From: an uncultured Methanosarcinales archaeon
GTDB taxonomy: Archaea; Nanobdellota; Nanobdellia; Woesearchaeales; SKGA01
Assembly: GCA_964428395.1 (NCBI GenBank)
Contig: CAYRYB010000001.1
Span: 139,971 to 203,970, forward strand
Length of the DNA stretch: 64,000 nucleotides
Direction of reading: 5' to 3'
Both the position numbers and the translations under genes were made by a program. Shown here piece by piece: positions 19,688 to 54,044 of this stretch (its first letter is position 1; every line of letters begins with the position of its first letter). The notes beneath the pieces were generated by a model, which was not told where the DNA came from, searched no databases, and worked only from the letters and a program-made list of their open reading frames with translations.

Positions 19688-19718
19688 TATACGTCACCCT
19701 CTTTTTACTAAAAAAACT

Positions 19719-20870
19719 TTAATTTCCTCGAATAAAACTGATAAGAGTATTTATTTTTGATGAAAGTTTCTCTTTTCGTTTTTCATACACAGCTAGAGTT
19801 TTTTCTATATCTCCTAATTTATCAGCCACTGCCGGATGGTTGCTAAGAGCATTAAACACTTCTACTTTTTTCTTCAGCAATTCTAATTCTTGTATTAAAT
19901 TATCCTTCTCTGTTTCTATATTTGAGATTAAATCTCCCGTCTTGATTTTTTTAGCAAAAAGATTCTCAAAACCATCGTAGATTTTCTTTCCTAATTCAGC
20001 GTAATTTTGTACCTCTTGAACCTTTATTTTTGCACTTTTTAAGAGCGTGTCTTGTTGTAACTCAACTTCTTCTCGCTTTGAGCCCACTATCTTTGAAAGT
20101 TTTTTAATACTCTCTTTTTTGTTTTCCTTGATATTGCTAGTAATCGTAAGAATATCTTTTTTTATTTTTTTAATACGCTCTTCAGTTCCCGAGATGTTTT
20201 TGATTTGAGAAGTTAATTCCGTTGAAACAGTGCTCAATTTATTTAAGGATTCTTTTATTGTTTTTTCAGCTTCATCTTTACTAAAACGAAGCTTGGCTAC
20301 ATTCGCTTCAAACGTCTTGAGGCGATCCTCTTCTTTTTTTAGATCGTTTAATGATTGTTGGTATGCCTTATCAAAATTTTCTAATTGACTATCATATTCT
20401 TGAATGAATTGCTTGTAGACTCGTTGTTGTTCTTCTATTTCTTTATCGATATTTTTTTTAAGCTCGTCAAAATGTTCAAGTTCTTTCATTTGTTTTCGAA
20501 CAGTTTCTAGTTCATCCTTGATATGCCCTTGAATATTCACAAACTCTTTTCGGACTTCTTCAAAGCCACTCGTTTCACTATCTATTGCATTAATAGTTGC
20601 ATCAATTTTTCGTTTAAAGGCATCTTTTTGAGAATGAGCTTCTTTTGCCGAGATTTTCACGGTGTCCTCATCAATCTTACGTTCCTCAACGTACATTTTA
20701 GAAAACTTATAAGAAAGAGAGACTACTTTTTCCTTTTCTAAAAGTTCTATCCAGTCTTCAACTACATCCTTTGCAACACCAAGCGTTTTTGCTGCTTGTT
20801 CAGAAGTTAGTTTCTTACGATCGTGAATGAGTTGAACAAGCCGGTCAATACCTGTAGTTATATTCTTCAT
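19719..20870 (-). CDS. wHTH + long coiled-coil protein (pilus-operon accessory; fused counterpart of 1437..1892 + 286..1434)
   Basis: The N-terminal wHTH is similar to ORF 1437..1892. About 300 aa of heptad-rich coiled coil follow. It sits first after the pilin genes and before the ATPase. Confidence 0.55.
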   Translation of the reverse strand: MKNITTGIDRLVQLIHDRKKLTSEQAAKTLGVAKDVVEDWIELLEKEKVVSLSYKFSKMYVEERKIDEDTVKISAKEAHSQKDAFKRKIDATINAIDSETSGFEEVRKEFVNIQGHIKDELETVRKQMKELEHFDELKKNIDKEIEEQQRVYKQFIQEYDSQLENFDKAYQQSLNDLKKEEDRLKTFEANVAKLRFSKDEAEKTIKESLNKLSTVSTELTSQIKNISGTEERIKKIKKDILTITSNIKENKKESIKKLSKIVGSKREEVELQQDTLLKSAKIKVQEVQNYAELGKKIYDGFENLFAKKIKTGDLISNIETEKDNLIQELELLKKKVEVFNALSNHPAVADKLGDIEKTLAVYEKRKEKLSSKINTLISFIRGN

Positions 20871-20939
20871 ACCGATTTAAATATGAATTAACAGGTTAAA
20901 AAAGTTGTGTAACCACTCAAAAAAGAAAAAAGAGCCTTT

Positions 20940-21959
20940 TTATGGACAAGCACTTGCATTAGAATAAGATAATCCATCCACTTCGTAGGTGGTTGCTTCG
21001 TTTTGCGGAATAACAAAATAAAGAGATGCAGGCAAACCAGTAACATTACAAAGTTTTACACCTCCTAAATCATTAAAGTAAATAAAATCCACTTTAATCC
21101 TGTTTTCATAGACATCTTTGTCCTGCGCAGCAATATCTCCTATATTTACTATGCTTTGTATACCATAAGGGCTTGGAGTATTATTATTTTCAAAATGTTG
21201 TAAAAAGGAGGGCGCATTTGTTGAAGCAATATAATACGATTTGTTTGCGAGAAGTTGTAAATTGGTTGTATCATTATCGCTTGTATTTACTAAAAAGAGA
21301 AAGGGCGCTTCTCGTACCGTATTTGGAACAGTATTTTCTGTAAATTTACTATACAATGGATCTCGTAAATCAAAAATAGGTACTTGAGTAGTATACGTTT
21401 TTTCAAAATGCCATGATGCAACATGTTTAGTGTCGGAAATATTAACTTTTGTATGAACGGCAACTGTTATCTTCCACGGATCTTCTTGTGAAAGCGTAAT
21501 ATTAAGAACAGTAATATTTGCTCGTAAACCAATTTGACTTGCTAAGAAATTAACACGAGCAAGATAATCTGAAAAACTTGACGCGTTCATTAAAGTTACA
21601 TTAGTTTGGTTAATAGTGCCATTAAAGAATGCTTCCTCAAATGCAGTCGCTGTATTGTTAAAAAACCCTGCAGAGGTTGATGCGATATAATCTTCTAAAG
21701 AAAGCAACGCTCGAAAGGATGAGATATATGTTGCTCGATGTACATCTTGATTAAAGTCGGTTACAAAATCATTCATGAGCTTTACGCGACTTTCGTAAAT
21801 GTCTTGTTTGTCTTGAAAGGTATATCTGTTCGTTGAAAGGAAAACAAATATGATAATAGTTGCAAGGATTGTTGCGGTTACCAAATAGGTGAATCCTTTT
21901 TTGTTAAATTGTTTCATTGTCATGTCCATACTGTTGTACTTACCGTTGTTGGTCCCCAT
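20940..21959 (-). CDS. pilin-like N-glycosylated protein (class III signal peptide; true start probably at internal MTMKQFNKKG|F)
   Basis: KKG|FTYLVTATILATIIIFVFL is a prepilin-like motif. Many N-x-S/T sequons. Ends in Cys. Confidence 0.55.
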   Translation of the reverse strand: MGTNNGKYNSMDMTMKQFNKKGFTYLVTATILATIIIFVFLSTNRYTFQDKQDIYESRVKLMNDFVTDFNQDVHRATYISSFRALLSLEDYIASTSAGFFNNTATAFEEAFFNGTINQTNVTLMNASSFSDYLARVNFLASQIGLRANITVLNITLSQEDPWKITVAVHTKVNISDTKHVASWHFEKTYTTQVPIFDLRDPLYSKFTENTVPNTVREAPFLFLVNTSDNDTTNLQLLANKSYYIASTNAPSFLQHFENNNTPSPYGIQSIVNIGDIAAQDKDVYENRIKVDFIYFNDLGGVKLCNVTGLPASLYFVIPQNEATTYEVDGLSYSNASACP

Positions 21960-24649
21960 AAATAAGGTACGCCATTTATCAATGTTATCGTGATTTCTAA
22001 ATCTGCTTCTGTTAAATCCACGATGACCTTGCCATTTTTATCAGGGTCTAATTGTTCAAGCAAGTGGTACGTTGCAGAGTCATAGGCATCATCGCTATTA
22101 TAAACAATACTCGTGTTTGTATAGTTACATTGTTTGCTTCCAGAATAACTTGTTGGGATAAGTAAATGTGAGAAAAGCTCTGATTCTGATTGTATGGTCC
22201 AATTACAACCATCATGATACGTAAAAGTTTGACTTCGTGGTGTTGATGAATTAATTAATGCAGTGTAAATAAGTGTGTTATTGGGTGAACAAATTGAATT
22301 GTTAAGTGGCGAGTCCCCTACCTTCATAACAATTGTATTATCTGTTCCAGGAACCAATGTCGTTGAAGGTATTTGTATAAGAAAAGGATCTCCTAGTAAA
22401 ACATAATCATTGCCATAATCACTTAAATTAAAAACAACCACATTATTAACGGTTACTAACTTTGTCCAATGCTTAGAAGAAAATGATGTAACATAAGCAT
22501 TAGTTATTTCTATTCCCTCAGGCAGAGGAATAGTTGCGCTGCAACCACCAAATTGAGCAGACTCAAATGTTAAGGATATTTTTCCTTGTTTATCTACTTG
22601 TGTTAATGGTTCATAGTATAAATCAATGTATGAATTATTATACAGGTGCGCTAGGGAGTAATTACCAACAATATTAAGTGTTTGCGAAGAATAATTTGCT
22701 ACAACGAGTATTTGTTCAGAAATATTCTTGTATATTTGTGCAAGCTGTGAAACATTGGTTGCATTATAGTAAAGCGAGGAATTACAAGCAATTTGTTGCA
22801 TGACTGATTGTCCTGAAGCAGTCATTCCTTCACTAAATCCTATTGCATAAACAGTAATGTTATCTGCGCATGCTTGCTGCGCTGCAGCTATTGCATCGTT
22901 TTGTGATTGCGTTCCATCATTGCCAACAGAAGAATATGTGTGTAAATCACCTCCACAATGTCGCGTTGGTTCACCATCACTTAAAACAACCATAAATTTT
23001 TTGTTCGTTGAACTATTTATCGAATCTCTAGCCCTATTAATTCCACAACAGGTGCATGTTCCGCCTCCTGCAGAATAAGTGTCAATCTCTGAATCTAAAA
23101 CTCCTTTTACATTGGTTAATGCTGTTTGAGGATTTGCGTTTGTTGAAAAATCTACAAGACCAATTTTGTGAAGAAGCGAGTCATTAAGAATAGTTTCTAC
23201 AAAAAGATGATCTGCTTCTTTTGCAATGTCTAAGAGTGTTTTATTACAGGTTGTAGTTGTTTTGTTATAGATAACATGATTTTTTGTTGTTGAAGTTCCG
23301 CCACATTCATTAGAAACGCAAGTTGTTGTATAAGGGCATTCTGTTGAAAACCACCATACCCACCACTTATATTCATATTTGCAGTATTCCACATCATGCG
23401 TGTAATATTCTCCACAATCATTCATACTTCCTGAAACGTCCGTTACGAGAAATGAATCTGATGGTTTGCCTGCGTTAACAACAGTAATGTTTGAAAGATT
23501 GGTCGTTCCTAAGCGCAATGGTATTTCTGTTGGTGGAAGAGTTTGATTTATTCTTGAATAAAGAATATTTTGCGTGATATTTTGTCCTGGAGAAATAAAA
23601 ATAGTTTCATTAGCTAAAGTTACAAACGTATCATATTCATTATACAACGTCAAATTCATAGTCCAATTGCGTATTAGTCCTTGCGCGCCAAAGGCATCAT
23701 ACATGTTTAAGAATCCATCAATTTGTGGGAAGAAATATCTTCTGTAACCAGGTGTTACAGGATCATTTACTGTGTCCGTTGTATACACCACTTTAAGAAA
23801 TCCTCCTGAAATATACGATTCATTTAAATCGCTAGTAAACGCTAAAGTAATATTATTTTTTCCTGCTTGAAAAGAAGTATTGCAAGATATAATGTTCCAT
23901 AAATTTATTTGTCCTACTTGTCCCGTTCTTGGTCCTCCACAAGGATTTTCATTAATATAGAATTGAAATGTTCCTGGTGTTTCTATTTTAAGGTCTGTTG
24001 ATAAAAGTCGTGAAGTAGAAAAATCAGCTGGTAGCGTTAAAGATACCGTGATATTTCCCTGTCCGTAAAATCCTCCAAAATAAGCATAGGCATTTGTTTT
24101 TTTATTGCGTACTTTTTTAAGATAGGCCGAAGAACTTGAACCAGTAATAGGTGCACCTTTTGCAATTCCAGATATCATTCGTCTTGTTATAACCAAATTT
24201 TGTATTGGTGAATCATTTCGTTGAAAGATAGAATCGTTCTCAATTGAAAATTTAATATTCAAATTTGGTGGAAGTGAGGCATTGGTTATTATTTCAAAGA
24301 GTTCTTTTGCTTTGGCAGTTTTATTTAATGCCCAATATTCACCAATTTGTTCTAAAACGGTATTGTTGACATTTGTTATGTTGCCCGTTGTTATCTCACT
24401 AGTTACAAAAGAACTATTCATTTCATTGATTGTTATCGCTCCTAAAACATTAAGAAGATCTTGCGTGATAAACGATTTCTCATTTATTGATGGCTCATAA
24501 TAGGTAACAGAAAGTAATGTTGCTGCAACACCAACTAATAAAAGTCCTGCTAAAAGCGCGTCCATTGAGTAATAAATTCCTTTTTTCTTTATCATTTTAC
24601 TCCCATGAATAAACAATAAGCTGTAATAATGATGCGTTGTAGGCAACAA
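21920..24649 (-). CDS. large pilin-like adhesin with vWA domain (class III signal peptide; true start probably MIKKKG|I at about 24595)
   Basis: KKKG|IYYSMDALLAGLLLVGVAATLL is a prepilin motif. The MIDAS motif LVTDVSGSMND is present, with downstream vWA-like T and D positions. About 60 N-glycosylation sequons and Cys-rich segments. Confidence 0.7.
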   Translation of the reverse strand: MLPTTHHYYSLLFIHGSKMIKKKGIYYSMDALLAGLLLVGVAATLLSVTYYEPSINEKSFITQDLLNVLGAITINEMNSSFVTSEITTGNITNVNNTVLEQIGEYWALNKTAKAKELFEIITNASLPPNLNIKFSIENDSIFQRNDSPIQNLVITRRMISGIAKGAPITGSSSSAYLKKVRNKKTNAYAYFGGFYGQGNITVSLTLPADFSTSRLLSTDLKIETPGTFQFYINENPCGGPRTGQVGQINLWNIISCNTSFQAGKNNITLAFTSDLNESYISGGFLKVVYTTDTVNDPVTPGYRRYFFPQIDGFLNMYDAFGAQGLIRNWTMNLTLYNEYDTFVTLANETIFISPGQNITQNILYSRINQTLPPTEIPLRLGTTNLSNITVVNAGKPSDSFLVTDVSGSMNDCGEYYTHDVEYCKYEYKWWVWWFSTECPYTTTCVSNECGGTSTTKNHVIYNKTTTTCNKTLLDIAKEADHLFVETILNDSLLHKIGLVDFSTNANPQTALTNVKGVLDSEIDTYSAGGGTCTCCGINRARDSINSSTNKKFMVVLSDGEPTRHCGGDLHTYSSVGNDGTQSQNDAIAAAQQACADNITVYAIGFSEGMTASGQSVMQQIACNSSLYYNATNVSQLAQIYKNISEQILVVANYSSQTLNIVGNYSLAHLYNNSYIDLYYEPLTQVDKQGKISLTFESAQFGGCSATIPLPEGIEITNAYVTSFSSKHWTKLVTVNNVVVFNLSDYGNDYVLLGDPFLIQIPSTTLVPGTDNTIVMKVGDSPLNNSICSPNNTLIYTALINSSTPRSQTFTYHDGCNWTIQSESELFSHLLIPTSYSGSKQCNYTNTSIVYNSDDAYDSATYHLLEQLDPDKNGKVIVDLTEADLEITITLINGVPYLWGPTTVSTTVWT

Positions 24650-25097
24650 GACGTTGTGTTGTTACTAAATGTTTATAGGTAATTGAGGATAAATCTGGTT
24701 CACAAGTAAGCGCATCATATGCTAAAGGATATCCATGTAAACAGTTTGTAAGATTGATGATTTGCGTGTTATTTTTAAAAAAGAAAATATATTCATTGGT
24801 TACATGATACAATGTTTTTGTATGATTATAATCAAGAGCATCAAATTGTGTTAATTTAGTCAGGTTAAGACGATAATCATCAGTAATTCCTGGAAGTAAT
24901 ACTGTTGTTACACTCCAATTATTTGGATAACCATCCAAAACAAGTTGATCAGAAATATAAACATTATTTCTGTAAAGCTCTGTGTATGCTCCTGCAGGTA
25001 GAATATCTATAATTATTTTTATTGCAAGAAGTAAAAGAAAGATAAAACCAACGAGGCCTAAAATAAAATCAACGGTAAACATTTGTGCTTTGCTCAT
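24597..25097 (-). CDS. minor pilin (class III signal peptide)
   Basis: N-terminus MSKAQ|MFTVDFILGLVGFIFLLLLAI. Confidence 0.6.
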   Translation of the reverse strand: MSKAQMFTVDFILGLVGFIFLLLLAIKIIIDILPAGAYTELYRNNVYISDQLVLDGYPNNWSVTTVLLPGITDDYRLNLTKLTQFDALDYNHTKTLYHVTNEYIFFFKNNTQIINLTNCLHGYPLAYDALTCEPDLSSITYKHLVTTQRLVAYNASLLQLIVYSWE

Positions 25098-25118
25098 TTT
25101 TATTCTCTTTAGTAAGGT

Positions 25119-25514
25119 TTAGTTTAGTTGTAAAACTCCATTTTGCTTTCGCAAAACATTTGTTCCTTTTATCATGCTTCCATTAATAACAGGAATAACA
25201 TAAAATAATTCTTGATGTGAAAAAAGAATACTCATATATCCATTGCTTGCACTTGTATTGCCAATAACGATAGTATAATTCATATCATTTATTTTTTCAG
25301 GAACGCTAAAGAATCGCTCATAGCCATCCTGTACTTGCGTTCCTAAGAGGAGCTCTTGTTGCAAGCTTTTTCCCAAGTCATTTAGTTGTTCGTACGTGTT
25401 CTGTGTTGTTTTATCCGCTGAAAGGGTGAGCGCTGCCCCTATAACTATGAAAAGGAAAAAAAATCCTGTTATTCCTAAAAGAATAAATTCTATAGATACT
25501 TGTGCTCGTTTCAT
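25119..25514 (-). CDS. pilin (class III signal peptide)
   Basis: N-terminus MKRAQ|VSIEFILLGITGFFFLFIVIGAA. Confidence 0.65.
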   Translation of the reverse strand: MKRAQVSIEFILLGITGFFFLFIVIGAALTLSADKTTQNTYEQLNDLGKSLQQELLLGTQVQDGYERFFSVPEKINDMNYTIVIGNTSASNGYMSILFSHQELFYVIPVINGSMIKGTNVLRKQNGVLQLN

Positions 25515-25516
25515 TT

Positions 25517-25957
25517 TTATGTGTCCGTAAGAAGAACATCGTCAGCTTGTGCTTTTATCACAATAAAATGAGGTCCTTCGAATTTTTTTAATGATCCACT
25601 AAGATTAATAGCAGTCTCTTTAATATAGTCATAATTATACGTTGCCGAAGTCATGTTAAAAATAAGTTCGTTTGACTGCACACTAACGGATTGTATACCT
25701 GAAGGAAATGTTATTCGAACAGTTTTTTGTGCTGGTGGGCCCATAAAATAAACTTCTTGAGCTGCATCAGTAATGAGTGTTGCTGCTCTGTCTAATTGTG
25801 CGTTGGCGATGTCTGATTGTAAATTACTTGTTTGTGTTGTGAAAATGATGATTAAAGGTAACGTCATAAAAAAAGCCACTGAGAAAATGATTAAGTATTC
25901 CATGGCCACTTGACCTTTACACATCCTTTTCATAAAGATAATTGACGCTGAAGGCAT
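25517..25957 (-). CDS. pilin (class III signal peptide; start probably the internal MKRMCKGQ|V)
   Basis: KGQ|VAMEYLIIFSVAFFMTLPLIIIF. Only a 2-nt gap to the downstream pilin gene. Confidence 0.6.
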   Translation of the reverse strand: MPSASIIFMKRMCKGQVAMEYLIIFSVAFFMTLPLIIIFTTQTSNLQSDIANAQLDRAATLITDAAQEVYFMGPPAQKTVRITFPSGIQSVSVQSNELIFNMTSATYNYDYIKETAINLSGSLKKFEGPHFIVIKAQADDVLLTDT

Positions 25958-26043
25958 ATTTAAAGATGATGTCTTTATCGACTAGTTAAAACAAGAAAAA
26001 AAAGTGAATCCTAATGAGATGCAAGAGAAGAAGCAAAGAGAAA

Positions 26044-26072
26044 GAAATAAAGAAAAAAAAGAAAAAAAATAT
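26044..26072 (-). terminator. oligo-T tract (minus strand) immediately after the major pilin stop codon
   Basis: Plus-strand agaaaaaaaagaaaaaaaat equals T-runs on the coding strand 5-30 nt after the TAA at 26077-26079. Archaeal intrinsic terminators are oligo-T runs. Confidence 0.35.
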
Positions 26073-26076
26073 TTAT

Positions 26077-26595
26077 TTACGCGTATTTACCATCTACACT
26101 TCCCGTGTGGGTGATCGTTTGCGTTGTTTCAACATTTGTATAATCCACAGTCAATTCCGCTTTAAATTTATCACCAACAGTAGGGTTTAGACTTGATGGG
26201 TCACAATCCCATTTTAAAAGGAAGGTTCCTCCGTTTGGAATTTGTGTTGTGTCTGCAACAATTGGTGCACCAGAATATGTTCCTGTAATAACAGGGTTAT
26301 TACATTCTACTCCGGTTGCAGGTGAAACATTTCCTGTTAAAGGCAAGGTAATTGCCACACCTTTGTTATTTTTAAATGCTATTTCAATAGAATTGTCAGC
26401 AAGGCTAACTACTGCGTTATCTAAGTTTGCGATTGGTGCAGTGAACGTTGTTCGCTCTGGCAAGAGTTTTTGGGGGCTTAATACACCAAAATATGCCAAT
26501 GCTCCGATTGCCAAAAGTACAACCAAAATTGCCCAACCATACGTCATTAAGAACTCCATGGCCGCTTGTGCTCGTTTTCTCATCATTAAAAACAC
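26077..26595 (-). CDS. probable major pilin (class III signal peptide; likely true start at ATG 26586 rather than the GTG at 26595)
   Basis: N-terminus (M)MRKRAQ|AAMEFLMTYGWAILVVLLAIGALAYFG. The SD-like gaggtg lies 9 nt upstream of the ATG. It is the first gene of the locus, with its own TATA and an oligo-T terminator. Confidence 0.7.
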   Translation of the reverse strand: MFLMMRKRAQAAMEFLMTYGWAILVVLLAIGALAYFGVLSPQKLLPERTTFTAPIANLDNAVVSLADNSIEIAFKNNKGVAITLPLTGNVSPATGVECNNPVITGTYSGAPIVADTTQIPNGGTFLLKWDCDPSSLNPTVGDKFKAELTVDYTNVETTQTITHTGSVDGKYA

Positions 26596-27367: not shown

Positions 27368-27597
27368 TTTTTTCTTTTATTTTTCTTTGTCAAGAGCGTT
27401 TTTTCCAAAGAAGAAAACATAAGAGCAACACGCAAACAAGCAAGGACAGTTGCACTAAAGAGAAAGTCCAAGAAAACAATCTAGCGGTAGCTTAAACACT
27501 TCTTAGCGTTTAATGCAAATAACTTTTTAGGCAGAGCCAGAACTGACAAACATTTATAAATGACTTCTCGTTCTTCAAACATACAGCAAGTTCTCAT

Positions 27598-27672
27598 AGC
27601 GGGATGGAGCAGCCAGGAGTGCTCGCAGGGCTCATAACCCTGAGGTCGGAGGTTCAAATCCTCTTCCCGCTA
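27598..27672 (+). tRNA. initiator tRNA-Met (anticodon CAU), archaeal type
   Basis: Acceptor AGCGGGA/TCCCGCT with A1:U72, the archaeal initiator hallmark. GGG/CCC triple in the anticodon stem. Loop CTCATAA. 75 nt, no encoded CCA. An upstream TATA-like atttataaa lies at about 27552-27560. Confidence 0.85.
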
Positions 27673-27700
27673 TTTCTTTTCAATTCTTCATCAGAAATAT

Positions 27701-27925
27701 TCACATCGAAAACTGGTTCGATTCCTTTCTCAACAAGAAGTGCATTGCTTCTTTAAGTTTTCGCCCGAGGTCGTTGTTTTCTTGCATAATCTTGTCGTGT
27801 CTTGTTTTGATTATCACTTCTAACTCTTCGCCTTTGACAGTAAGTCTAGAGCTAATAAGTGGTGCAGGCACAACAATTGAATGGGAATTTCCCACTTTCA
27901 TCAGTTTTGCAGTGAATTTTACCAT
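27701..27925 (-). CDS. AbrB/SpoVT (swapped-hairpin) family small DNA-binding protein (antitoxin-like)
   Basis: N-terminus MVKFTAKLMKVGNSHSIVVPAPL matches the K-VGNS-x-x-V/I-P signature of the AbrB/MazE/VapB family. Confidence 0.55.
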   Translation of the reverse strand: MVKFTAKLMKVGNSHSIVVPAPLISSRLTVKGEELEVIIKTRHDKIMQENNDLGRKLKEAMHFLLRKESNQFSM

Positions 27926-28004
27926 GTAGCTTTTCCTCCGTTGTTTAAACAGATTGTTATAATGGAAATCACTTAAAATATGAGAATGTTACGCTAAATG
28001 TTAC

Positions 28005-28214
28005 ATGGAAGAGTTATTACCATTATTTCGAAGCAAATTAAAGGTTGCAATACTGGAAAGTCTCAAAGAAGATACTATGAGTCCTATTATGCTTGCAAAG
28101 AAACTAAAGAAACCACGTTCAAGCATTAGTAGAATCATCTTAGAATTGGAAGAATTAGGCTGGGTGAACACGAAGAGTGGTGAGAAAGTTCTAAAAAAGT
28201 TTATAGTTCAGTAA
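28005..28214 (+). CDS. small winged-helix (ArsR-like) transcriptional regulator
   Basis: 69 aa. LAKKLKKPRSSISRIILELEELGWVN is an HTH recognition helix followed by a wing. Confidence 0.5.
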   Translation: MEELLPLFRSKLKVAILESLKEDTMSPIMLAKKLKKPRSSISRIILELEELGWVNTKSGEKVLKKFIVQ

Positions 28215-28219
28215 CATCA

Positions 28220-29176
28220 CTATTTTAATTCTATTTTTGTCAGAATTTGATCAAAAATTGCAGAATATTTCTTAATATTCTCTCGCATTTTTTTGCAATT
28301 CTCAAAATTAAATTCAAAAGATCCATAGAATATTTTCCCACTATCATCAATAGTTTCAGACTTATGAGCCAATTCATTTCGAGGTGTTATTATTTCTGTA
28401 CAATATGATTCAAAACTAAATGGTGTAGTTAAACCGATTTTGTTTATTACAGTTTCAACCGCTTCACCTTTTTTATGAGTTCCAAAAATAAATTCATCAA
28501 TGAAACTGTTAAATGAACTCCCGGAATATTCTTTTTTCTCTTGTACTAGATCTTTTACGTATAAATTCAAATATTTTTTTAAATCTTTTAGTTTATTAAA
28601 AGACCAATCTACTGTCTTGGTTATTACTTCCTCAATAAAAAAATCAGGAGTCACTAATTCTTTTTCAATAGAGCGACGTAAGATTTTTTTCTTTTTATCA
28701 TCAAGATCAGACACTTCCGCCATAACCAATCCTCGCAAATTTTCAGGATCTTGAATTTTTTTTATAGTACTTAAAAATATTTGTTTAAACTTTTCTAAAA
28801 AGAAATGATCATCACGCTCAGAACAATAAACTCCATCAATTTGTCTTTCACTTATAAGTTTTCTAAGTTTTTCCTCATCAGTTTCTTGATTAGAATAAAA
28901 AAGAACATCGGTATAATGATTACCATCTCGGATGTCTTTTATTATATCAGCACCAGATTCATAATATCCTAAGTCAAAGTCCATTAAAATGATATTATAA
29001 TCACTATATGTTCCATGATCCTCATTAAATTCACTTTTCGTCGAGATTTTTATTATATCTGCATCATTCTCACAGATAAACCCTTCCAATTGAACAATTT
29101 TTACAACTTCTTCACTTAACTCTTCAACCCAGTCTGGATCATCATCAAACCACAGAATTCTATACCTTAACTTCAT
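28220..29176 (-). CDS. response-regulator receiver (REC) domain protein with C-terminal effector-like domain bearing an Rx4H (HEPN-like) motif
   Basis: REC signatures: beta1 RILWFDDDPD (acidic pair) and beta3 IILMDFDLG (phospho-acceptor Asp). The ~200-aa C-terminal domain contains ...ITPRNELAHK (R-N-x3-H). Its stop overlaps the start of the GHKL/HK gene. Confidence 0.6.
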   Translation of the reverse strand: MKLRYRILWFDDDPDWVEELSEEVVKIVQLEGFICENDADIIKISTKSEFNEDHGTYSDYNIILMDFDLGYYESGADIIKDIRDGNHYTDVLFYSNQETDEEKLRKLISERQIDGVYCSERDDHFFLEKFKQIFLSTIKKIQDPENLRGLVMAEVSDLDDKKKKILRRSIEKELVTPDFFIEEVITKTVDWSFNKLKDLKKYLNLYVKDLVQEKKEYSGSSFNSFIDEFIFGTHKKGEAVETVINKIGLTTPFSFESYCTEIITPRNELAHKSETIDDSGKIFYGSFEFNFENCKKMRENIKKYSAIFDQILTKIELK

Positions 29177-31692
29177 TCTTTTATCTCCATCAATAATTTA
29201 ATTCCTTTCTTTTCGCTTGAAACCGTTAACTTACCATTAAGATCTTTGACAATATTTTTTGAATCATATAATCCAAGACCTGATCCTCCTGTTGTAGATA
29301 TTCCTTGTTCAAATATTGTTGCTGGGTTTTTACTAAATCTTTTGGGCAAACCATCACCATCATCTTTTATTTCAACAATTAATGAAGAACCTTTTTTAGT
29401 AAATGAAAAGAATATTTTTTTAGCGTTCATCTTTCGAGCATTATCTAATATACAGTCAACCATGTATGCAATCTCGAACGGTTTAATACGTTTTTTGAAG
29501 GAAAATTCTTCATCTTGAATTGTATATATTTTTAATGTTGAGAGCTTATTCTTATGAATATTCTGCAAATACTGTTTGAAAAAATCCACTAAATTTACTT
29601 TTTTTCCATTAAGTTCTTCCGTTAATCCTCCTTGAATTGCAATATTCGCTATTGTAAATATTTGTTTATTAACTCGATTTAATTTCTTTGCTTTCTCTAT
29701 CACTCCGCCAGTTTCTGATTCTTTCAAAATTTTCTTTGTTAATAATTCAACTGTTTGAGATTTTGTTTTAATATAATGATAATATCGAACAAGTTGTTCC
29801 TTGCTCTGGTCTTGTATCGATTTCAAAAAAATGTTCTGAGTTTCTAATTCTTCTTTTTCTTCTTTACTTTTCTTCGCTTCTTCTTCGGCTTTTTTTGCTT
29901 TTGATTCCGCTTTCTTTTTCTCTTCTTCAGCTTTTTTACTTTTTTGTTCAGCTTGTTTAGCTTTCGATTCTGCTTTTTTTCTTTTTTCTTCTTCCCCTTT
30001 TGCCTTTCTAGTTAATAAAGCAATCGACTTTTTTATATTCGACATTCCTTTTGAAGTATTTGTATCAAGTTTTATGCCCTCATTTTCTATCTTGGAGATG
30101 AAGTTATTAATTTTTTCATGTTGCTCTTTTGCTAAACCTTTCATTAAGTCAGTATCTATTGTTAAATTAAGAATATCATTCTTATTAGATGTTATGAGAA
30201 TAACTTTACTGAGCTGAGATAATATTGTTAGTTCTCGTTCGGTTTGATCTCCTTTAAGAGATTCTCTTCTAGGGTCATAATCAAATATTCCTGCCTCAAC
30301 ACCTTTCAAATAAGGATCGTTTTTATCTTTGACTTTATCCCAATCAATAACATCAGAAACAAAGAGTTCTAACTTTCTTAAAACATAATAAAAAAATGAT
30401 TTTGTAAAATCAGTTCTACCAATTGCAGTTAATTGATCATACGATGGGTTTTTAACTAATCCTTCCCTATTTGAGACAATCGTAAATAGCTCATTCTTTG
30501 GATCAGTTATTTCTATTCTACCAATACAGTCTCGAGTTCCTAGATACCTTCTTTGACCTTGAGTTTTACGTATATCAAGACCTAGCCAATCATTTCCGAA
30601 ATCTCCAAATGGACTTAATCTAAAACCATTAATAAAAAGAAATATGGATCCAAATTCAACAGACCTATATCCCATCTGACGTTTAAAATATGCTTTGGCA
30701 TATTGGTTTAAGTAAGTTAAGTGTACTCTAATATTTTTTAATAAAGAAAACTTGTTCTTTTCTTTAAGATGAAAAACAACTCGATTCCTATCTTTTAGTG
30801 TTGTAGTTATATATTTTCCATCTTTAGAAATTTCACAAGTGATTTCTGAAACCCTAAATGCTAACGAATCAAATATTTTATTTTCTACAAGAGTTCTATT
30901 CAGATAATTGTATTCTTCAACATCATCTTTATCAGTTAAATCATAATCTTCTTTGCTCAGATCTTCAACACATAACGATATTTTAAATGAATTTTTTTGT
31001 ATACTTTGATTCGGATTAATTAACTTTTCCAAGTTTTTTTTTAAATCAATTAAAGGAGTATAATAATATTCATCTTGCGATAATTCAATCCATTCTCTTC
31101 TTAATCGACTAATCTCAAGTATTGTTCCTGCACTTTCAATTGTATACCCAATCTTTTTCTTTAATTCAGTTGGTGTTAACGAATCCATTAACTTGATTCC
31201 TACTTTTTGTATAACATCATTAACAGAATTCTTATTCTCGAAATCATTCCAGTTAATTTGCAAATGCCATATTTTTGAATCTTTTTTAGATTTAGTATAA
31301 AGATCTAAATACTCACCAAGCCGATCACAAGAAAATCTGCCTACTCCTTTCGCCCCTGCTTGTACTCGTCCAAACTTTTCTCTATCTTCTCTTTTTGAAG
31401 AATAAGCAATGTTAAGCCATTTTTCTTCAATGTCCTTTAAAGACATCCCTTCTCCTGAATCAACAATTAATATTTTAGAGGATGAATCAATTAGTTCATC
31501 CCTTACAGTCGAATTTGTATCAAAATTAATGTTCTTTTTCAGATTTCGAAAATGTATTTTTACTAATTTAGAACCAGCATCAAATGAATTTTTAATTAAT
31601 TCTTGAATAGCTACAAAATCATCGTTAATTAAATCCTGTCCAAGAACATTTTTTAAGTGTGCATTTGTTTTAAAGTGTAAAGTTTTAACCAT
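29173..31692 (-). CDS. 839-aa protein: N-terminal MORC/MutL-type GHKL ATPase + charged coiled-coil + C-terminal histidine-kinase module (putative HisKA_2-like H-box + HATPase_c)
   Basis: N-terminus ELIKNSFDAG (Bergerat N-box), VDSGEGM (G1) and GAKGVGRFS (G2). Middle KAKGEEEKRKKAESKAKQAEQKSKKAEEEKKKAESKAKK. C-terminus YYHYIKTKSQTVELL (putative phospho-His region), ILDNARK (N-box), DDGDGLP (G1) and GGSGLGL (G2). Confidence 0.7.
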   Translation of the reverse strand: MVKTLHFKTNAHLKNVLGQDLINDDFVAIQELIKNSFDAGSKLVKIHFRNLKKNINFDTNSTVRDELIDSSSKILIVDSGEGMSLKDIEEKWLNIAYSSKREDREKFGRVQAGAKGVGRFSCDRLGEYLDLYTKSKKDSKIWHLQINWNDFENKNSVNDVIQKVGIKLMDSLTPTELKKKIGYTIESAGTILEISRLRREWIELSQDEYYYTPLIDLKKNLEKLINPNQSIQKNSFKISLCVEDLSKEDYDLTDKDDVEEYNYLNRTLVENKIFDSLAFRVSEITCEISKDGKYITTTLKDRNRVVFHLKEKNKFSLLKNIRVHLTYLNQYAKAYFKRQMGYRSVEFGSIFLFINGFRLSPFGDFGNDWLGLDIRKTQGQRRYLGTRDCIGRIEITDPKNELFTIVSNREGLVKNPSYDQLTAIGRTDFTKSFFYYVLRKLELFVSDVIDWDKVKDKNDPYLKGVEAGIFDYDPRRESLKGDQTERELTILSQLSKVILITSNKNDILNLTIDTDLMKGLAKEQHEKINNFISKIENEGIKLDTNTSKGMSNIKKSIALLTRKAKGEEEKRKKAESKAKQAEQKSKKAEEEKKKAESKAKKAEEEAKKSKEEKEELETQNIFLKSIQDQSKEQLVRYYHYIKTKSQTVELLTKKILKESETGGVIEKAKKLNRVNKQIFTIANIAIQGGLTEELNGKKVNLVDFFKQYLQNIHKNKLSTLKIYTIQDEEFSFKKRIKPFEIAYMVDCILDNARKMNAKKIFFSFTKKGSSLIVEIKDDGDGLPKRFSKNPATIFEQGISTTGGSGLGLYDSKNIVKDLNGKLTVSSEKKGIKLLMEIKE

Positions 31693-32992
31693 TTAGACTC
31701 GCCTTTGAACAACAATTACAGTTTAGCTCTGTATTATTACTTTGAGTTATATTAGTAACTTCTCCCTTAATAGATGAGGGCGAGCTTCTTTTTAAATATT
31801 CTTTCAAAACAATGCCTAAAATCTCTCCAAATAGCGGAGGTATAGCATTTCCAATTTGAGTATACCTTGGCACTTCTAATTTTCTGTTTTTTCCACCCGT
31901 AGTGTATTTTCCCTTGAATTCAAAAGTATCGGGGAATGACTGAATTCTTGCATATTCTCGAACAGTTAAAATTCGAGGTTCTTCATAATGAATATAATCA
32001 TCAGGTAGAGTTGTTAAAGTTGGAGATGTCCCATTAGAATCTAAAGGAATTATGCAATGTTTCTTTAGATTAAACTTCTTCTTTAACTCGTCAGAAACAT
32101 TTGTATTTCTATTTGCCTTGCTTAATATGTATCTAAATCGTTTTATTGTTTCAGTTGAATGATTTGGAAAACGATGACTATCAGGATTTGAAGATCGAGA
32201 TAAACCTTTTTTCATCAATGATTGATATGAAGAATTTTTTTTACCATAGAGTCCTGCTTTGAATCGAGGATTGTCTGGAGAATTAATCAACCCATTAGAC
32301 TGAAACAAGTCTCCTATTGCATCCTTTACAGTTGTTTTGCGAGTAATAGGCAAACCTTTCTGCTTTAGAAATTCTTTCTTATATTGATAAATATTCTCAA
32401 ATATGTCTTGGGCTTTACCTTTTTTAGTTCCAATTATAATACATCTTTCCCTTCTTTGTGGTACGCCAAAATCAGAGAAATTTATGATTTTCCAATCAAC
32501 ATCATATCCAAACTCTTTCAATTTGTTAGTGACAATTTCAGAATAAGCAATTCCTCGAGAATTATTTTTTGTTTTAAATCCTATAGTGAACCCCTTAACA
32601 TTTTCAAAAACAATTACTTGAGGTTGTACTAATTCTACAAAAGTTAAATATAATCTCAGAAGAAGATTCCTAGTGTCAGACTCATTTCTACGACCTGCCA
32701 TTGAAAACCCTTGACATGGTGGTCCCCCCACCAGTAAAGTTACGTTTCCTCTTAACGAACGTAATTGATCTGATTTTTCATCTATTAATTCATTAATATC
32801 ATGATTTGACTTTTCCAACCAAGGCACCCATTTAAAGTGCTTTGTCTTATCAATTAAATTAAATTTTAATGTCTCGAAAGCTAAAGAATCTTTTTCAATT
32901 GCAAATAGTCCCTTCCAATTAGCATTATGAAGTCCTAATGAAATGCCTCCACAGCCTGCAAAAATATCTATATAGTTGAAACTAGACTTCAT
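31685..32992 (-). CDS. DNA (cytosine-5)-methyltransferase (Dcm family)
   Basis: Motif I IDIFAGCGGISLGL. Motif IV GGPPCQGFSMAG. Motif VI ENVKGF. Motif X QIGNAIPP. The start of the downstream GHKL/HK gene overlaps by 8 nt. Confidence 0.9.
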   Translation of the reverse strand: MKSSFNYIDIFAGCGGISLGLHNANWKGLFAIEKDSLAFETLKFNLIDKTKHFKWVPWLEKSNHDINELIDEKSDQLRSLRGNVTLLVGGPPCQGFSMAGRRNESDTRNLLLRLYLTFVELVQPQVIVFENVKGFTIGFKTKNNSRGIAYSEIVTNKLKEFGYDVDWKIINFSDFGVPQRRERCIIIGTKKGKAQDIFENIYQYKKEFLKQKGLPITRKTTVKDAIGDLFQSNGLINSPDNPRFKAGLYGKKNSSYQSLMKKGLSRSSNPDSHRFPNHSTETIKRFRYILSKANRNTNVSDELKKKFNLKKHCIIPLDSNGTSPTLTTLPDDYIHYEEPRILTVREYARIQSFPDTFEFKGKYTTGGKNRKLEVPRYTQIGNAIPPLFGEILGIVLKEYLKRSSPSSIKGEVTNITQSNNTELNCNCCSKASLNG

Positions 32993-33046
32993 GTTAACAC
33001 TTTAGACGAACCTGGTTATAAACTTTTCGTTTATAAATGGGTATTA

Positions 33047-33391
33047 TTAAGGATCTGTTTGAGATGTTTTTTTATAAGCATATACCCATGAAGCATCATT
33101 ATCTCCACCACCAGTGCCACCATCTGTTCCAATAGTTTCAATAAAATATTTTTCAATTTCACGTGCTTCTGTAGAGTTCATAGCTTCCCTGAAAGCATAC
33201 CATGCATTTTCTTTTTGTACTTTATGATCTCCAAAGAGTCTTTGCTCGATATTTTGCGTTATTCCTACATACCAACTAGATTTAGCTCCACCTTCCTTGT
33301 TGATATGAGCTAGTATTTCTTGTTTAATTTGTTCTTTTTCTTTTTTCATTTTAAACACTAGTAATAGATTGGTTAAGATATATTTAAACAC
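33047..33391 (-). CDS. small GIY-YIG superfamily (YhbQ/UPF0213-like) putative nuclease
   Basis: 114 aa. SWYVGITQNIEQRLFGDH matches the second half of the GIY-YIG signature (Y-x-G-x-T-x-N/D-x-x-x-R-x-x-x-H), with a downstream Glu. Confidence 0.45.
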   Translation of the reverse strand: MFKYILTNLLLVFKMKKEKEQIKQEILAHINKEGGAKSSWYVGITQNIEQRLFGDHKVQKENAWYAFREAMNSTEAREIEKYFIETIGTDGGTGGGDNDASWVYAYKKTSQTDP

Positions 33392-33481
33392 TCTGTGTTG
33401 ATGTCCAGTGAGGTATAGAAATTATTGAATTGCACTTATAAATCAGGATAAAAAACTAAAATTAAAGGCTCTCACGAGCCC

Positions 33482-33598
33482 TCAAAACTTCAATTCATAG
33501 CTTTTTCCTTCTTCAAGTATTTTTGTTTCTATGAAACCTTCAAGCACTTCAAAACCATATTCATCGCCAATTTTGACTAGTTTTGCTTCTATTTTCAT
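33482..33598 (-). CDS. possible 38-aa ORF with AbrB-like N-terminal beta-hairpin motif (MKIEAKLVKIGDEYGFEV...)
   Basis: Found manually. ATG preceded by the SD-like aaggtg and a TATA-like atttataaat about 31-40 nt upstream (plus coordinates 33629-33638). Shares the AKL-x-K-x-G motif with ORF 27701..27925. Confidence 0.3.
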   Translation of the reverse strand: MKIEAKLVKIGDEYGFEVLEGFIETKILEEGKSYELKF

Positions 33599-33762
33599 TT
33601 TTATTGCACCTTCACACACTTTTTTGCATTTATAAATAATTGATTAGAATTAAGTTGGTCAGTGGTTCTAGTCAAGACTTCGCTATTGTCCTTTAATTTT
33701 TTACCAGCACATTTTTTCCGAATATGTTCTAAATAGAATATTTTCTGAATAGAAAGAGAGTT

Positions 33763-34632
33763 TTAAAATAACGTTCCTTGTAATTCATCCGCTTTTCGTT
33801 CTTGAGCAGTTTTCTTTCCTCTTATAGCATAATCATTTTTAAAAGCATATGCTCGTGGAAAAGAAACCTCGTTTGCTAAAGGACAGTACTGTTCACACAC
33901 CGCATCATTTTTCATTAAACACAATTGTCCTGCAGTCCATAAAAAAGCATCGAGTTCAAAAATATTCACGCCTTGCTCTTTTGCAAGATCACGAAGAAAG
34001 TAACTATATTTCTTTTTTGTTTCAGTTGATTGCAAAGGATTTTCGTTGCGTATTATTCCTAAAGCAAGAGCTATATTATAATCGTGAAAGTCAATTTTAG
34101 GACAAAAATCTTCTTCATGAGAAAAAGTGAAAAGGGTATGATCTCGAAGAGTGTGCACATAAAGCCCCGAAAGTCCTTCTGAAAATCCTTTAAAATCTAA
34201 AAGTCTTTTTTGTGTTGTTACAATGTCTTTATCTAGTACATTATAGATATCTCCACCATACTTACTTTTAATGAGTTCGTAAGATGTTTGTAGATAATCT
34301 CCTTTTTTAGCCATTGAATGCATAGACTGTCGAGCAAAAATTGCTGCTTCTTTTTTTGAAAGAGAAAGGATGCTTTCAAGAGTAAAAAAAATTTTATCTT
34401 TTTTATACAAAGCGAGAACTTCTTTATAATGTTTTTTTGACTCTTTTTGTGTGTCAAAAAGAACAGCCAGAAAAGCAAGAAGAGCAAGTCGCTTTGGCGT
34501 CTCTATTTCTTTAAGAGGAACTAAAAGGTCTTGTTGATAGGCAAGATGAGAAAATTGTTCATTAAATTTCTTTCCTTGTTTCTTGAAGGGTTCAATAAGT
34601 GTTTTTACTGCTCGTTCCTTATCAAAATTCAC
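33763..34632 (-). CDS. hypothetical protein (289 aa), Cys cluster near the C-terminus
   Basis: Clean ORF. C-terminus C-x7-C-x3-C. No confident family assignment; a DNA-repair-like role is only a guess. Confidence 0.45.
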   Translation of the reverse strand: MNFDKERAVKTLIEPFKKQGKKFNEQFSHLAYQQDLLVPLKEIETPKRLALLAFLAVLFDTQKESKKHYKEVLALYKKDKIFFTLESILSLSKKEAAIFARQSMHSMAKKGDYLQTSYELIKSKYGGDIYNVLDKDIVTTQKRLLDFKGFSEGLSGLYVHTLRDHTLFTFSHEEDFCPKIDFHDYNIALALGIIRNENPLQSTETKKKYSYFLRDLAKEQGVNIFELDAFLWTAGQLCLMKNDAVCEQYCPLANEVSFPRAYAFKNDYAIRGKKTAQERKADELQGTLF

Positions 34633-34666
34633 TAATCATCACCTAGTACTCCAACAAAGAAATTGC

Positions 34667-34951
34667 TCATTCTTCCTCCAGTCCAAAACTTTCTACGAAT
34701 CGTATGATTGTTTTGTATTCTGCCAGATAATCATATCCTTTTTTTGTAAGGATATACGTTTTAGAATTATTTTTTCCTTCTTGTTCTTTTACAAAGCCTT
34801 TCTTAATAAGTTCTTTAAGGTAGTCACTCATCATTTGATGTGAAAGGTTTGATTTGTACAAAAGATGCGTTGGCTTTATCTCGCCACCTTTCAATTTAAT
34901 AGCATTGAGAATATCATGTATGATTTCTAAACGTCCTCGTTTTTTACTCAT
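34667..34951 (-). CDS. small archaeal winged-helix protein
   Basis: 94 aa. RLEIIHDILNAIKLKGGEIKPTHLLYKSNLSHQMMSDYLKELIKKGFV is a typical wHTH. Overlaps the upstream membrane-protein gene by 4 nt. Confidence 0.5.
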   Translation of the reverse strand: MSKKRGRLEIIHDILNAIKLKGGEIKPTHLLYKSNLSHQMMSDYLKELIKKGFVKEQEGKNNSKTYILTKKGYDYLAEYKTIIRFVESFGLEEE

Positions 34952-35622
34952 TGTCGTACAACCCGAAAAAAACTTGCCAGTAAAAGCAAGTAACCAACCA
35001 AACTAATAAAATGCCCCGCCAGATATAACCAGTTGAGCGTTGTTGCAAATGCTAATTGTAAGTTTCCTAAAAAGAGCAGTCCAAAACTTAAAAAAATTAA
35101 AAGAGAATTAAGTGATGGTTTTTGCGTATGATGTTGATAATATTGTAATGTTATAAAAAGCAAATAAATGCTGGTAATAGTATAAAATGTAATACCTAAA
35201 TGAGTGCTCATAATAAGTGCGGTAAGACTTAATAAGAAAAGCAATAAAAAAATTTTTATTCCTCGCTCTTTAAGAGTAACGTATGATAATAATGTTAAGC
35301 CAAGTATCATTAGAATCGTATGCAGTCCTACTGCTATAAAACTGAGTTGAAATGTTGTTCGCATGCTTAACCCCACACTAGAAAGTAAACGCATACTTTG
35401 CACGCCAGATAAAAGAAAATAATTAAACACTGCTTCTATAAAATAGGCAAAACTGACACTTACAAATGCTAGTCCAAAGAGAAGGGATGAACGTTGTCGC
35501 GATATTTTATAGACTTTATAAGCAAAAAGAGCTATAAAAAAGGTTACCAGCGAGAAAATAAGCTGCATAATAATCTTTGATGCTCCAAACCACACGGGCG
35601 CTGAACAGGCAATAAGTTGCAT
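34948..35622 (-). CDS. polytopic membrane protein, unknown function
   Basis: 224 aa with about 7 hydrophobic helices. Confidence 0.5.
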   Translation of the reverse strand: MQLIACSAPVWFGASKIIMQLIFSLVTFFIALFAYKVYKISRQRSSLLFGLAFVSVSFAYFIEAVFNYFLLSGVQSMRLLSSVGLSMRTTFQLSFIAVGLHTILMILGLTLLSYVTLKERGIKIFLLLFLLSLTALIMSTHLGITFYTITSIYLLFITLQYYQHHTQKPSLNSLLIFLSFGLLFLGNLQLAFATTLNWLYLAGHFISLVGYLLLLASFFRVVRQ

Positions 35623-35771
35623 AATGAACTACTAGAATGGAGTTCCACTTTTAAGCTTTACGAACGCGAGTTCTAGAACAAAGGTCAATAGGAGTCCTTA
35701 CTATCCTTTATAAATAAACAAGTCCGTATAATTGTAATAAGAAACACATTGAACACATTGAGGTGAAATAC

Positions 35772-54011: not shown

Positions 54012-54019
54012 TTTATAAA
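54012..54019 (+). promoter_or_regulatory. TATA box (TTTATAAA) upstream of the MoxR gene
   Basis: gtttataaac lies about 25-55 nt upstream of the candidate starts. GGAGGTGA SD at 54063-54070 lies 4 nt before an in-frame GTG at 54075. Confidence 0.35.
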
Positions 54020-54044
54020 CAAAAGATGTAAGAGTTAAACTAGT

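Follow-up and report, generated by a model that had tools for sequence, protein, structure and literature searches.

A methylase, histidine-kinase and predicted receiver-HEPN cassette, a candidate phosphorelay-gated defence system, in a variable slot beside a tRNA-Met gene of a Woesearchaeota-like archaeon

Introduction

Elements resembling two-component systems (TCS) and associated with restriction-modification (R-M) loci have been described computationally in bacteria (Bellieny-Rabelo, Pretorius & Moleleki 2021, Genome Biol Evol, PMC8011034). In these elements a histidine kinase (HK)-like protein with the domains HATPase_c_3, HEF_HK and HATPase_c is encoded next to a response regulator (RR)-like protein with a Response_reg_2 domain, C5 methylases are frequent upstream, and R-M domains are enriched in the surroundings. 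The HK-like protein was proposed to descend from paraMORC ATPases. The description covers bacteria only, mentions neither HEPN domains nor archaea, leaves the output domain of the RR-like protein unnamed and contains no experiment. The present work concerns a three-gene operon of this general architecture, located at positions 28220-32992 (reverse strand) of a 64,000-nucleotide stretch of contig CAYRYB010000001.1, the whole of which is hereafter called the window. The operon, hereafter the cassette, encodes a Dcm-type DNA cytosine methylase, a histidine-kinase-like protein headed by a second GHKL ATPase domain, and a response regulator with a predicted HEPN RNase output domain.

The cassette shares with the described elements the domain order of the kinase (GHKL head, His helix, ATP-binding domain), the adjacent receiver gene and the upstream C5 methylase, and both often have R-M, HNH_2 and Vsr genes nearby. 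It differs in that the receiver of the window matches the ordinary Response_reg model and not Response_reg_2. Searches with HEF_HK (PF19191) and Response_reg_2 (PF19192), at E-value limits from 0.1 to 5, gave no match in the window proteins or in sets of 6, 34 and 36 homologues, the presence of the two models in the Pfam copy being unverified. Two plasmid systems of the same architecture were likewise unmatched, and the models may be narrow.

The closest validated analogue in logic is Detocs (DtcA/DtcB/DtcC; Rousset et al., bioRxiv 10.1101/2023.01.24.525353), in which a relay from a kinase to a receiver-effector constitutes an abortive-infection defence. Both systems have a cytoplasmic histidine kinase, a regulator carrying a toxic effector (a predicted one in the cassette) in place of a DNA-binding output, and an effector that is exchangeable. 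On the other hand, the cassette lacks the tetratricopeptide repeat (TPR) sensor, the 'buffer' receiver DtcB and the effectors of Detocs, mostly PNP (ATP nucleosidase); its own sensor is a GHKL ATPase, its effector is of HEPN type by prediction, and a Dcm partner is obligatory, whereas Detocs has no methylase. No stand-alone receiver gene is found in the cassette, and PADLOC returned no match to Detocs, whose models were unverified in the release used.

The paraMORC GHKL ATPases of R-M systems (Iyer, Abhiman & Aravind 2008, PMC2292703) resemble the cassette in placing an intact GHKL ATPase beside a DNA methylase, mostly a cytosine one. These systems pair the ATPase with helicases and endonucleases, whereas the ATPase of the cassette forms one protein with a histidine-kinase core and has the putative receiver-RNase as its partner. 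HEPN RNases (Abi2/Swt1, RiboL-PSP, MAE_18760, HepT) were surveyed by Anantharaman et al. 2013 (PMC3710099), who identified the RN..AH motif as a catalytic signature. The output domain of the cassette is likewise all-helical with an R-x4-6-H motif, its RN..AH motif has the form typical of Abi/Swt1-like families, and the association with conflict systems, including R-M loci, is also common to both. A receiver-HEPN fusion controlled by a kinase is absent from the survey, whose single mention of 'receiver' belongs to another context. The architecture is thus known, by computation and in bacteria; the assignment of an HEPN effector and a divergent archaeal member are added here.

Results

Organization of the operon

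The operon and its putative promoter comprise the following features.

31685-32992, reverse strand: Dcm-type C5 DNA cytosine methyltransferase, encoded by the first operon gene (DNA_methylase E 4.9e-60; TIGR00675 169.9 bits; PADLOC MTase_II E 6.5e-86)
29173-31692, reverse strand: soluble histidine-kinase-like protein of 839 amino acids (aa) with two GHKL domains, HATPase_c_3 (PF13589) at residues 27-170 and HATPase_c (PF02518) at residues 742-831
28220-29176, reverse strand: 318-aa response regulator with an N-terminal receiver domain and a C-terminal helical domain (about residues 140-318)
33016-33022, reverse strand: TTTATAA, putative archaeal TATA-box-like element by its resemblance to the consensus, about 27 nucleotides (nt) upstream of the methylase ATG, in a 54-nt spacer

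The three genes occupy 4,773 of the 8,103 bases (59%) of the interval 27598-35700, which an earlier note on this DNA had read as an island of small regulator genes. That reading was driven by small open reading frames (ORFs) and overlooked the three largest genes of the interval, those at 28220-32992. The methylase and kinase genes overlap by 8 nt and the kinase and regulator genes by 4 nt, and the operon is translationally coupled. A second copy of TTTATAA is located at 33031-33037. The methylase motifs FAGCGG, PPCQGFS and ENV can be read in the translation. No endonuclease domain was found in the operon, which therefore lacks the cognate endonuclease that a type II R-M system requires in addition to its methyltransferase.

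The histidine-kinase-like protein

The two GHKL domains of the 839-aa protein match PF13589 with E 6.4e-19 and PF02518 with E 5.9e-15, and the same pair occurs in five homologues. The ATP site of the N-terminal domain is conserved in 75 orthologues (E31, N35, D38, D78xGxG, G113xKGxG), as is that of the C-terminal domain (N751, D777, G805xG807), and His639 on the DHp helix is conserved in at least 95% of them. A profile of the last 225 aa matches the Thermotoga kinase HK853 (3dge/2c2a) over the DHp and CA domains with E 8.5e-19, and His639 falls on the phospho-histidine. The closest solved structures to a profile of the N-terminal domain are the N-domains of Hsp90 (E about 1e-7). Between the two ends lie a strongly conserved middle domain (about residues 200-460) and a Lys/Glu-rich coiled coil (about 555-620). 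The sensor position of a histidine kinase is taken here by a second, Hsp90/paraMORC-like GHKL ATPase.

The response regulator and its predicted HEPN output domain

The receiver domain of the regulator scores 17.2 bits in Pfam, below the cut-off of 30.2. Its fold is backed by an AlphaFold2 model (predicted local distance difference test, pLDDT, 83) and by Foldseek, which matched it to many receiver domains with probability 1.0. Asp66 and Thr89 are invariant, and D11-D13 are present and conserved.

The C-terminal half contains an invariant NLRGLVMAE helix and the motif R266-N-E-L-A-H271. R266, N267 and H271 are invariant in two sets of 34 and 36 divergent sequences, and the pattern RNxx[A/G]H recurs in each of the 78 full-length orthologues taken from GTDB genomes. 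Members of the regulator family gave sub-threshold matches to six HEPN Pfam families, the best being RiboL-PSP (6.1e-5). Because RNxxAH is invariant and these sub-threshold matches converge on HEPN families, the C-terminal domain is likely an HEPN RNase fold and is the predicted effector of the cassette. The catalytic and phospho-acceptor residues are intact in all three proteins, among them His639, Asp66, R266/N267/H271 and both ATP sites.

Several comparisons gave no corresponding signal. No HEPN Pfam model passed its threshold with the C-terminal domain, a profile of the domain found nothing among PDB sequences at E<=10, Foldseek found no significant HEPN match in the PDB for the C-terminal model, and hhalign of the profile with a plasmid AbiJ-NTD4 protein gave no meaningful match. 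The Pfam and Foldseek results are in line with a different reading, in which the kinase and the regulator form an ordinary cytoplasmic two-component pair for stress or host interaction that travels with an orphan methylase; the C-terminal domain would then be helical and non-catalytic and serve for output or interaction. Moreover, the Pectobacterium genes behind the 2021 description were found through their induction in planta (PMC8011034). This reading is nevertheless distinctly improbable, since the motif that is invariant in 78 of 78 proteins is the HEPN catalytic signature (PMC3710099) and the regulator has no DNA-binding output domain. The conservation of gene order and the neighbourhoods described below also stand against it.

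Kinase-receiver pairs of a related kind occur on plasmids. On 43 Campylobacter conjugative plasmids, and on other plasmids, a gene for a two-GHKL kinase-like protein overlaps a receiver-domain gene; examples are the Campylobacter jejuni plasmid p14991B (L173, 1-4454) and an Enterobacter mori plasmid (L172, 4947-8169). On the Campylobacter plasmids, dcm adjoins the pair on the opposite strand. In the plasmid receiver proteins the C-terminal domain lacks RNxxAH, looks different (motif ...TPSCD/NPACD...) and is non-HEPN. Such differing output domains point to exchangeable effectors in the family.

Distribution and neighbourhoods of the cassette

The regulator family gave 241 matches in a word-indexed search. 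An exhaustive profile search returned 1,524 clusters (50% identity), 1,162 of them with E<=1e-10. A scan of GTDB species genomes yielded 80 cassette loci, with hosts that include Methanosarcina, Aenigmatarchaeota, many Bacteroidota, Campylobacterota, Patescibacteria, Bacillota, Verrucomicrobiota, Spirochaetota and Planctomycetota. Between the cassette proteins of the window and their closest homologues the identity is only 37-61%. The kinase is nearest to those of Methanosarcina (41-42%), and the methylase to one on an unassigned contig (61%), followed by one in an Aenigmatarchaeota metagenome-assembled genome (MAG; 59%).

Seventy of the GTDB loci, belonging to Bacteria and to a small number of Archaea, had enough upstream DNA for the gene order to be judged. 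In 68 of them the genes run methylase, kinase, regulator on a single strand, with a median overlap of 4 nt at both junctions. The three genes are held together by strong selection. This conservation, with overlapping genes and across phyla, argues for one functional unit, and against a two-component pair that only happens to travel with an orphan methylase.

The downstream neighbour is variable among 68 loci, and there is no obligatory fourth gene. The first gene after the regulator encodes a DNA_methylase in seven loci, HhH-GPD in five, HNH_2 in five, Vsr in three and ResIII in two, and RE_HpaII, Type_ISP_C, RloB and RVT occur in single cases. Approximately 40% of these first neighbours are R-M, defence or 5-methylcytosine-repair genes, and a nuclease is present in a minority only. 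The HhH-GPD and Vsr genes placed right after the regulator fit the repair of the T:G mismatches that arise from deamination of 5-methylcytosine; the window has, in their stead, a small GIY-YIG-like gene next to the methylase on its upstream side. This enrichment in R-M and defence genes, seen in the present counts and in the earlier survey of the bacterial elements (PMC8011034), is again at odds with ordinary signalling. In Bacteroidales of the human gut the cassette lies between integrase genes, with right flanks that differ among samples. On another Bacteroidales contig it adjoins HNH_2, two more methylases, MTaX1 and an AAA_5 gene.

R-M systems are known to behave as addiction modules, and the cassette could be mainly selfish in the same way. 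In such a post-segregational killing module, loss of the methylase would leave DNA unmarked, the kinase would fire and the RNase would kill or arrest the cell. The R-M-like architecture, the occurrence of the cassette as cargo of integrative elements, its patchy phyletic distribution and the lack of an obligatory fourth gene are all consistent with this role. On the other hand, two receiver-HEPN queries found no match on PLSDB plasmids or INPHARED phages, and in IMG/VR the protein occurs on two contigs only; the cassette is thus absent from the sequenced plasmids and phages searched, where addiction modules are common. The same wiring would give both addiction and defence, so the two roles are compatible. 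Addiction as the main role is unlikely, and defence or abortive infection is tentatively preferred as the function of the cassette.

Composition

The earlier note had described the interval 27598-35700 as more AT-rich than the flanking Dus and RNase HII genes and had proposed a horizontally acquired defence island. The interval as a whole is indeed poorer in GC than the 64-kb window (0.313 versus 0.338). However, essentially all of the compositional signal is carried by the three genes at 28220-32992, as seen in both the GC and the tetranucleotide scans. Their GC of 0.297 is the lowest among windows of the same size in the 64 kb (others: mean 0.341, standard deviation 0.011, minimum 0.315), and the segment 28001-33000 is the top tetranucleotide outlier among the 5-kb windows, with an L1 distance of 0.256 (mean 0.150, standard deviation 0.030). 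The rest of the interval is near the background, with a GC of 0.350 for 27674-28219 and 0.326 for 32993-35700. The compositionally foreign part is clearly the operon at 28.22-32.99 kb only. Compositional foreignness is consequently borne out for a part of the proposed island, and its candidate defence genes are those of the previously unnoticed operon.

The variable slot and its borders

The landmarks of the interval that surrounds the cassette are the following.

27597-27673, forward strand: tRNA-Met(CAT) (ARAGORN; Rfam tRNA 59.3 bits), left landmark of the variable slot
27674-27693, forward strand: short flank directly 3' of the tRNA, which along with the final 16 nt of the tRNA has a displaced partial copy (att-like) in the relative L176
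33763-34632, reverse strand: 289-aa protein of no family (no Pfam, NCBIfam, PADLOC or PDB match)
34667-34951, reverse strand: HTH_45/Sso10a-family protein (HTH_45 E 1.3e-19; Sso10a_fam 66 bits, above the cut-off)
34948-35622, reverse strand: 224-aa membrane protein, syntenic with Dus in relatives

A comparison with about 15 billion sequences gave no relative of the tested window proteins at or above 90% identity (they are singletons at 90%), and for lack of near-identical relatives a strain-level comparison is impossible. A scan of JGI metagenomes with Dus gave 80 loci, 36-46% identical, with no common neighbours. The usable relatives are contigs obtained from a protein-database search with Dus, whose Dus proteins are 50-64% identical to that of the window. 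The closest named relatives of Dus belong to 'Candidatus Woesearchaeota archaeon' (64% and 50% identity) and to Nanoarchaeota/Nanobdellota MAGs. The window belongs to a metagenomic scaffold of 214 kb (SONG20-1_SAMN10739806). It also encodes the archaeal markers aCPSF1 (TIGR03675, 833 bits), pilins with class III signal peptides and the Sso10a-family protein.

The most informative relative is L176 (JGI 3300001336 ML7_10000408; Dus 59% identical). Its left flank consists, in order, of a pilin cluster, a Zn-finger gene, an extra methyltransferase gene and tRNA-Met; its right flank consists of a 41-aa ORF, HTH_45, the 224-aa membrane protein, Dus, RNase HII and a transglutaminase. The genes common to L176 and the window are 49-85% identical and colinear, and L176 is without approximately 6.9 kb of the window, about 27694-34550. 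The content of this slot differs in L176, L178, L179, L180 and L181.

The HTH_45 protein is 83-85% and the membrane protein 56-64% identical to their counterparts in L176, L178 and L179, where both genes are syntenic with Dus. The triad of HTH_45, membrane protein and Dus is also present in L180, L181 and L182, which makes six relatives' contigs in all. Given this synteny the two are core genes, and 34667-35622 is the true right border of the variable slot. The slot extends at most over 27.69-34.6 kb, with its right border at 34.6 kb or further left, and not at 35.7 kb. Thus, the interval is a variable slot between an initiator-like tRNA-Met and a conserved HTH_45/membrane-protein/Dus block, in a Woesearchaeota-like DPANN archaeon. 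The tRNA-to-Dus interval is thus variable in the part 3' of the tRNA and conserved in the core genes at 34667-35622. The winged helix-turn-helix (wHTH) protein that the earlier note had recognised at 34667-34951 is real.

The 289-aa gene next to this border has counterparts in the same relatives. L178 has an N-terminal match beside HTH_45 (9-119; 73% over 37 aa), L176 retains a 41-aa N-terminal remnant beside HTH_45 (8394-8519), and L179, whose Dus is identical to that of L178, has an internally deleted copy (592-770) followed by an unrelated ORF. The gene is therefore lineage-resident and not cargo of the cassette, and it seems to be decaying in the lineage.

At the left border, both ARAGORN and Rfam support the tRNA gene that the earlier note had placed, as an initiator tRNA, directly 5' of the block. 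The A1:U72 pair of this tRNA and its GGG/CCC anticodon stem (three G:C pairs) are consistent with an archaeal initiator tRNA, and it is accordingly called initiator-like. The Rfam scan of the window found two tRNAs and nothing else. The tRNA-Met has the same flanks in L176 and lies near HTH_45, with one gene between, in L180.

A partial direct repeat of the tRNA 3' end had been suggested as a possible mark of the borders of the block. None is present in the window: a 22-mer search with up to three mismatches and a general repeat search were both negative, and when the 3' half of the tRNA with its flank was aligned locally to both window strands the best scores were 24-29, equal to the background. 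No integrase was found among the ORFs or Pfam matches at 27.6-36.2 kb. A second copy of the tRNA 3' end exists in L176 only, where positions 8227-8436 comprise tRNA-Met, 97 nt of unique DNA, the tRNA 3'-end copy and then the window-type flank. The last 16 nt of the tRNA recur there in 15 of 16 positions, 97 nt downstream, followed by the flank of about 21 nt that adjoins the tRNA in the window. Window positions 27657-27693 are identical to L176 8400-8436 in 34 of 37 positions (local score 59, background up to 29). This repeat is the footprint expected of an element that integrated at the tRNA 3' end and was later mostly lost, which indicates that the tRNA serves as an attachment site in the lineage. 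In the window, the tRNA 3' junction is unoccupied and carries the shared 'ancestral' flank, so that integration at the tRNA end does not explain the arrival of the extra DNA.

These observations bear on the proposal that the whole of 27598-35700 is one tRNA-integrated defence island, composed of small DNA-binding and toxin-antitoxin (TA)-like genes and bounded by a tRNA 3'-end repeat. As in such islands, the slot lies directly 3' of a real tRNA, its content varies among relatives, its composition is partly atypical, with the block AT-richer overall, and an att-like repeat at the same tRNA, in L176, reveals integration at this site in the lineage. However, the window differs from such islands in having neither an integrase nor a flanking repeat and in keeping the ancestral flank right after the tRNA. 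In addition, the HTH_45 and membrane-protein genes are core genes in six relatives, the 289-aa gene resides in the lineage, only 28220-32992 carries the compositional signal, and the AbrB assignments among the small genes are weak and come without a toxin (see below). The proposal is largely refuted for borders and content and, as a whole, highly unlikely; a foreign cassette within a variable slot is the reading retained here.

Small genes around the operon

All the ORFs listed in the earlier note exist, and the ENA annotation of the contig also calls them genes. Those within the slot are the following.

27701-27925, reverse strand: 74-aa ORF, weakly AbrB/MazE-antidote-like (TIGR02609 'addiction module antidote', E 1.6e-4, 21.9 bits, cut-off 55.9)
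28005-28214, forward strand: 69-aa winged-helix protein (HTH_IclR 24.7 bits, above the cut-off; HVO_A0261_N E 5.7e-8), convergent with the end of the operon
33047-33391, reverse strand: GIY-YIG-like protein of 100-114 aa (GIY-YIG 25.2 bits, cut-off 22.6; first half of the domain only)
33482-33598, reverse strand: 38-aa ORF (45 aa from a GTG at 33619), called a gene in ENA

The wHTH identity proposed for the 69-aa protein is well founded, as the HTH_IclR match shows. The GIY-YIG identity of the gene just upstream of the methylase, whose product has 100 aa in ENA, is acceptable in that the match lies narrowly above the cut-off, but it covers only the first half of the domain; a PDB sequence search with this protein found no relative. 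The AbrB/SpoVT identity of the 74-aa ORF is weak: the TIGR02609 match is sub-threshold and the only one in NCBIfam, and Pfam gave no match even at E<=1. This ORF is solitary, with its toxin partner absent. The AbrB motif ascribed to the 38/45-aa ORF also found no backing, since scans of Pfam and NCBIfam returned no family match. No toxin gene is present beside either ORF.

The AbrB-like, wHTH, GIY-YIG and 38-aa ORFs and the 289-aa protein had no match in 84 other cassette loci. The small genes were considered as components of the cassette and rejected on this ground. The view that small regulators and TA-like genes make up an island fails for the same reason, together with the weak AbrB assignments and the lack of a toxin.

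Other features of the window

An archaeal type IV pilus-like cluster at 17693-26595 comprises genes for a T2SSE ATPase, for a protein with a VWA domain and for four small proteins that carry class III signal peptides. L176 (1-6516) keeps the same gene order, and its pilin-like genes are 56-64% identical. The XPD/Rad3-type helicase at 42009-43871 has 620 aa and is intein-free; in two 64%-related Woesearchaeota contigs (L174, 6139-9531; L175, 6030-9422) a 1130-aa helicase contains Intein_splicing and LAGLIDADG domains, a presence/absence polymorphism of the intein.

The large ORFs at 13006-15426, 45600-47372, 59034-61574 and 61585-63390 have no NCBIfam match at E<=1e-5. Further very large ORFs encode 1194 aa (3819-7403) and 1433 aa (49234-53535). 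The AT skew reaches 0.46 at 54001-55000, inside a 643-aa ORF (54045-55976), and the other 1-kb bins do not exceed 0.29 in absolute value.

Discussion

The anatomy of the cassette, its conservation and its foreignness can be stated with high confidence. Taking structure and function together, the combination of a Dcm methylase, a GHKL-headed histidine kinase and a receiver-HEPN RNase is probably a phosphorelay-gated defence or abortive system. The mechanism of defence or abortive infection, considered by itself, is tentative, its chances lying slightly below even.

In this mechanism the methylase would mark the host DNA as self. The paraMORC-like ATPase head would sense DNA that lacks the mark, or another cue of invasion, and would then dimerise. 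Subsequently, His639 would be autophosphorylated and the phosphoryl group transferred to Asp66. This would release the HEPN RNase, which would cut RNA and arrest the growth of the infected or cassette-losing cell. The whole would resemble an R-M system whose nuclease has given way to an RNase gated by a phosphorelay. The further claim that the cassette constitutes a new innate immune system of Bacteria and Archaea, with the Dcm self-mark read by the ATPase-kinase and relayed to an HEPN RNase for abortive infection, is more doubtful still.

Several points weigh against the interpretation as a foreign defence cassette. In the receiver, the canonical Lys is seemingly replaced, and R121 is conserved near that position. 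PADLOC gave no match for the kinase or the regulator, and in the literature the 2021 computational paper (PMC8011034) was found, with no follow-up or experiment on any member. As for foreignness, the Lys-rich coiled coil adds to the low GC of the operon, and the difference from L176 may reflect a deletion there and not an insertion in the window, because L176 still contains a truncated 289-aa gene. Neither an integrase nor an att repeat nor nearby defence genes occur in the window.

The regulator family is large, with at least 1,100 clusters, and is common in Bacteroidota of the gut and the rumen. The occurrence of the cassette in a reduced DPANN genome, where it has a putative promoter of archaeal type, and in Methanosarcina shows that the module crosses the domain boundary. 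The assignment of the output domain to HEPN gives a concrete and testable activity. If the proposed function is true, the cassette would be the first defence system of the two-component kind observed in archaea, a DPANN genome among them. It would also connect three subjects so far treated apart: self-marking by DNA methylation, DNA sensing by GHKL/MORC-type ATPases and the switching of toxic effectors by two-component phosphorelays.

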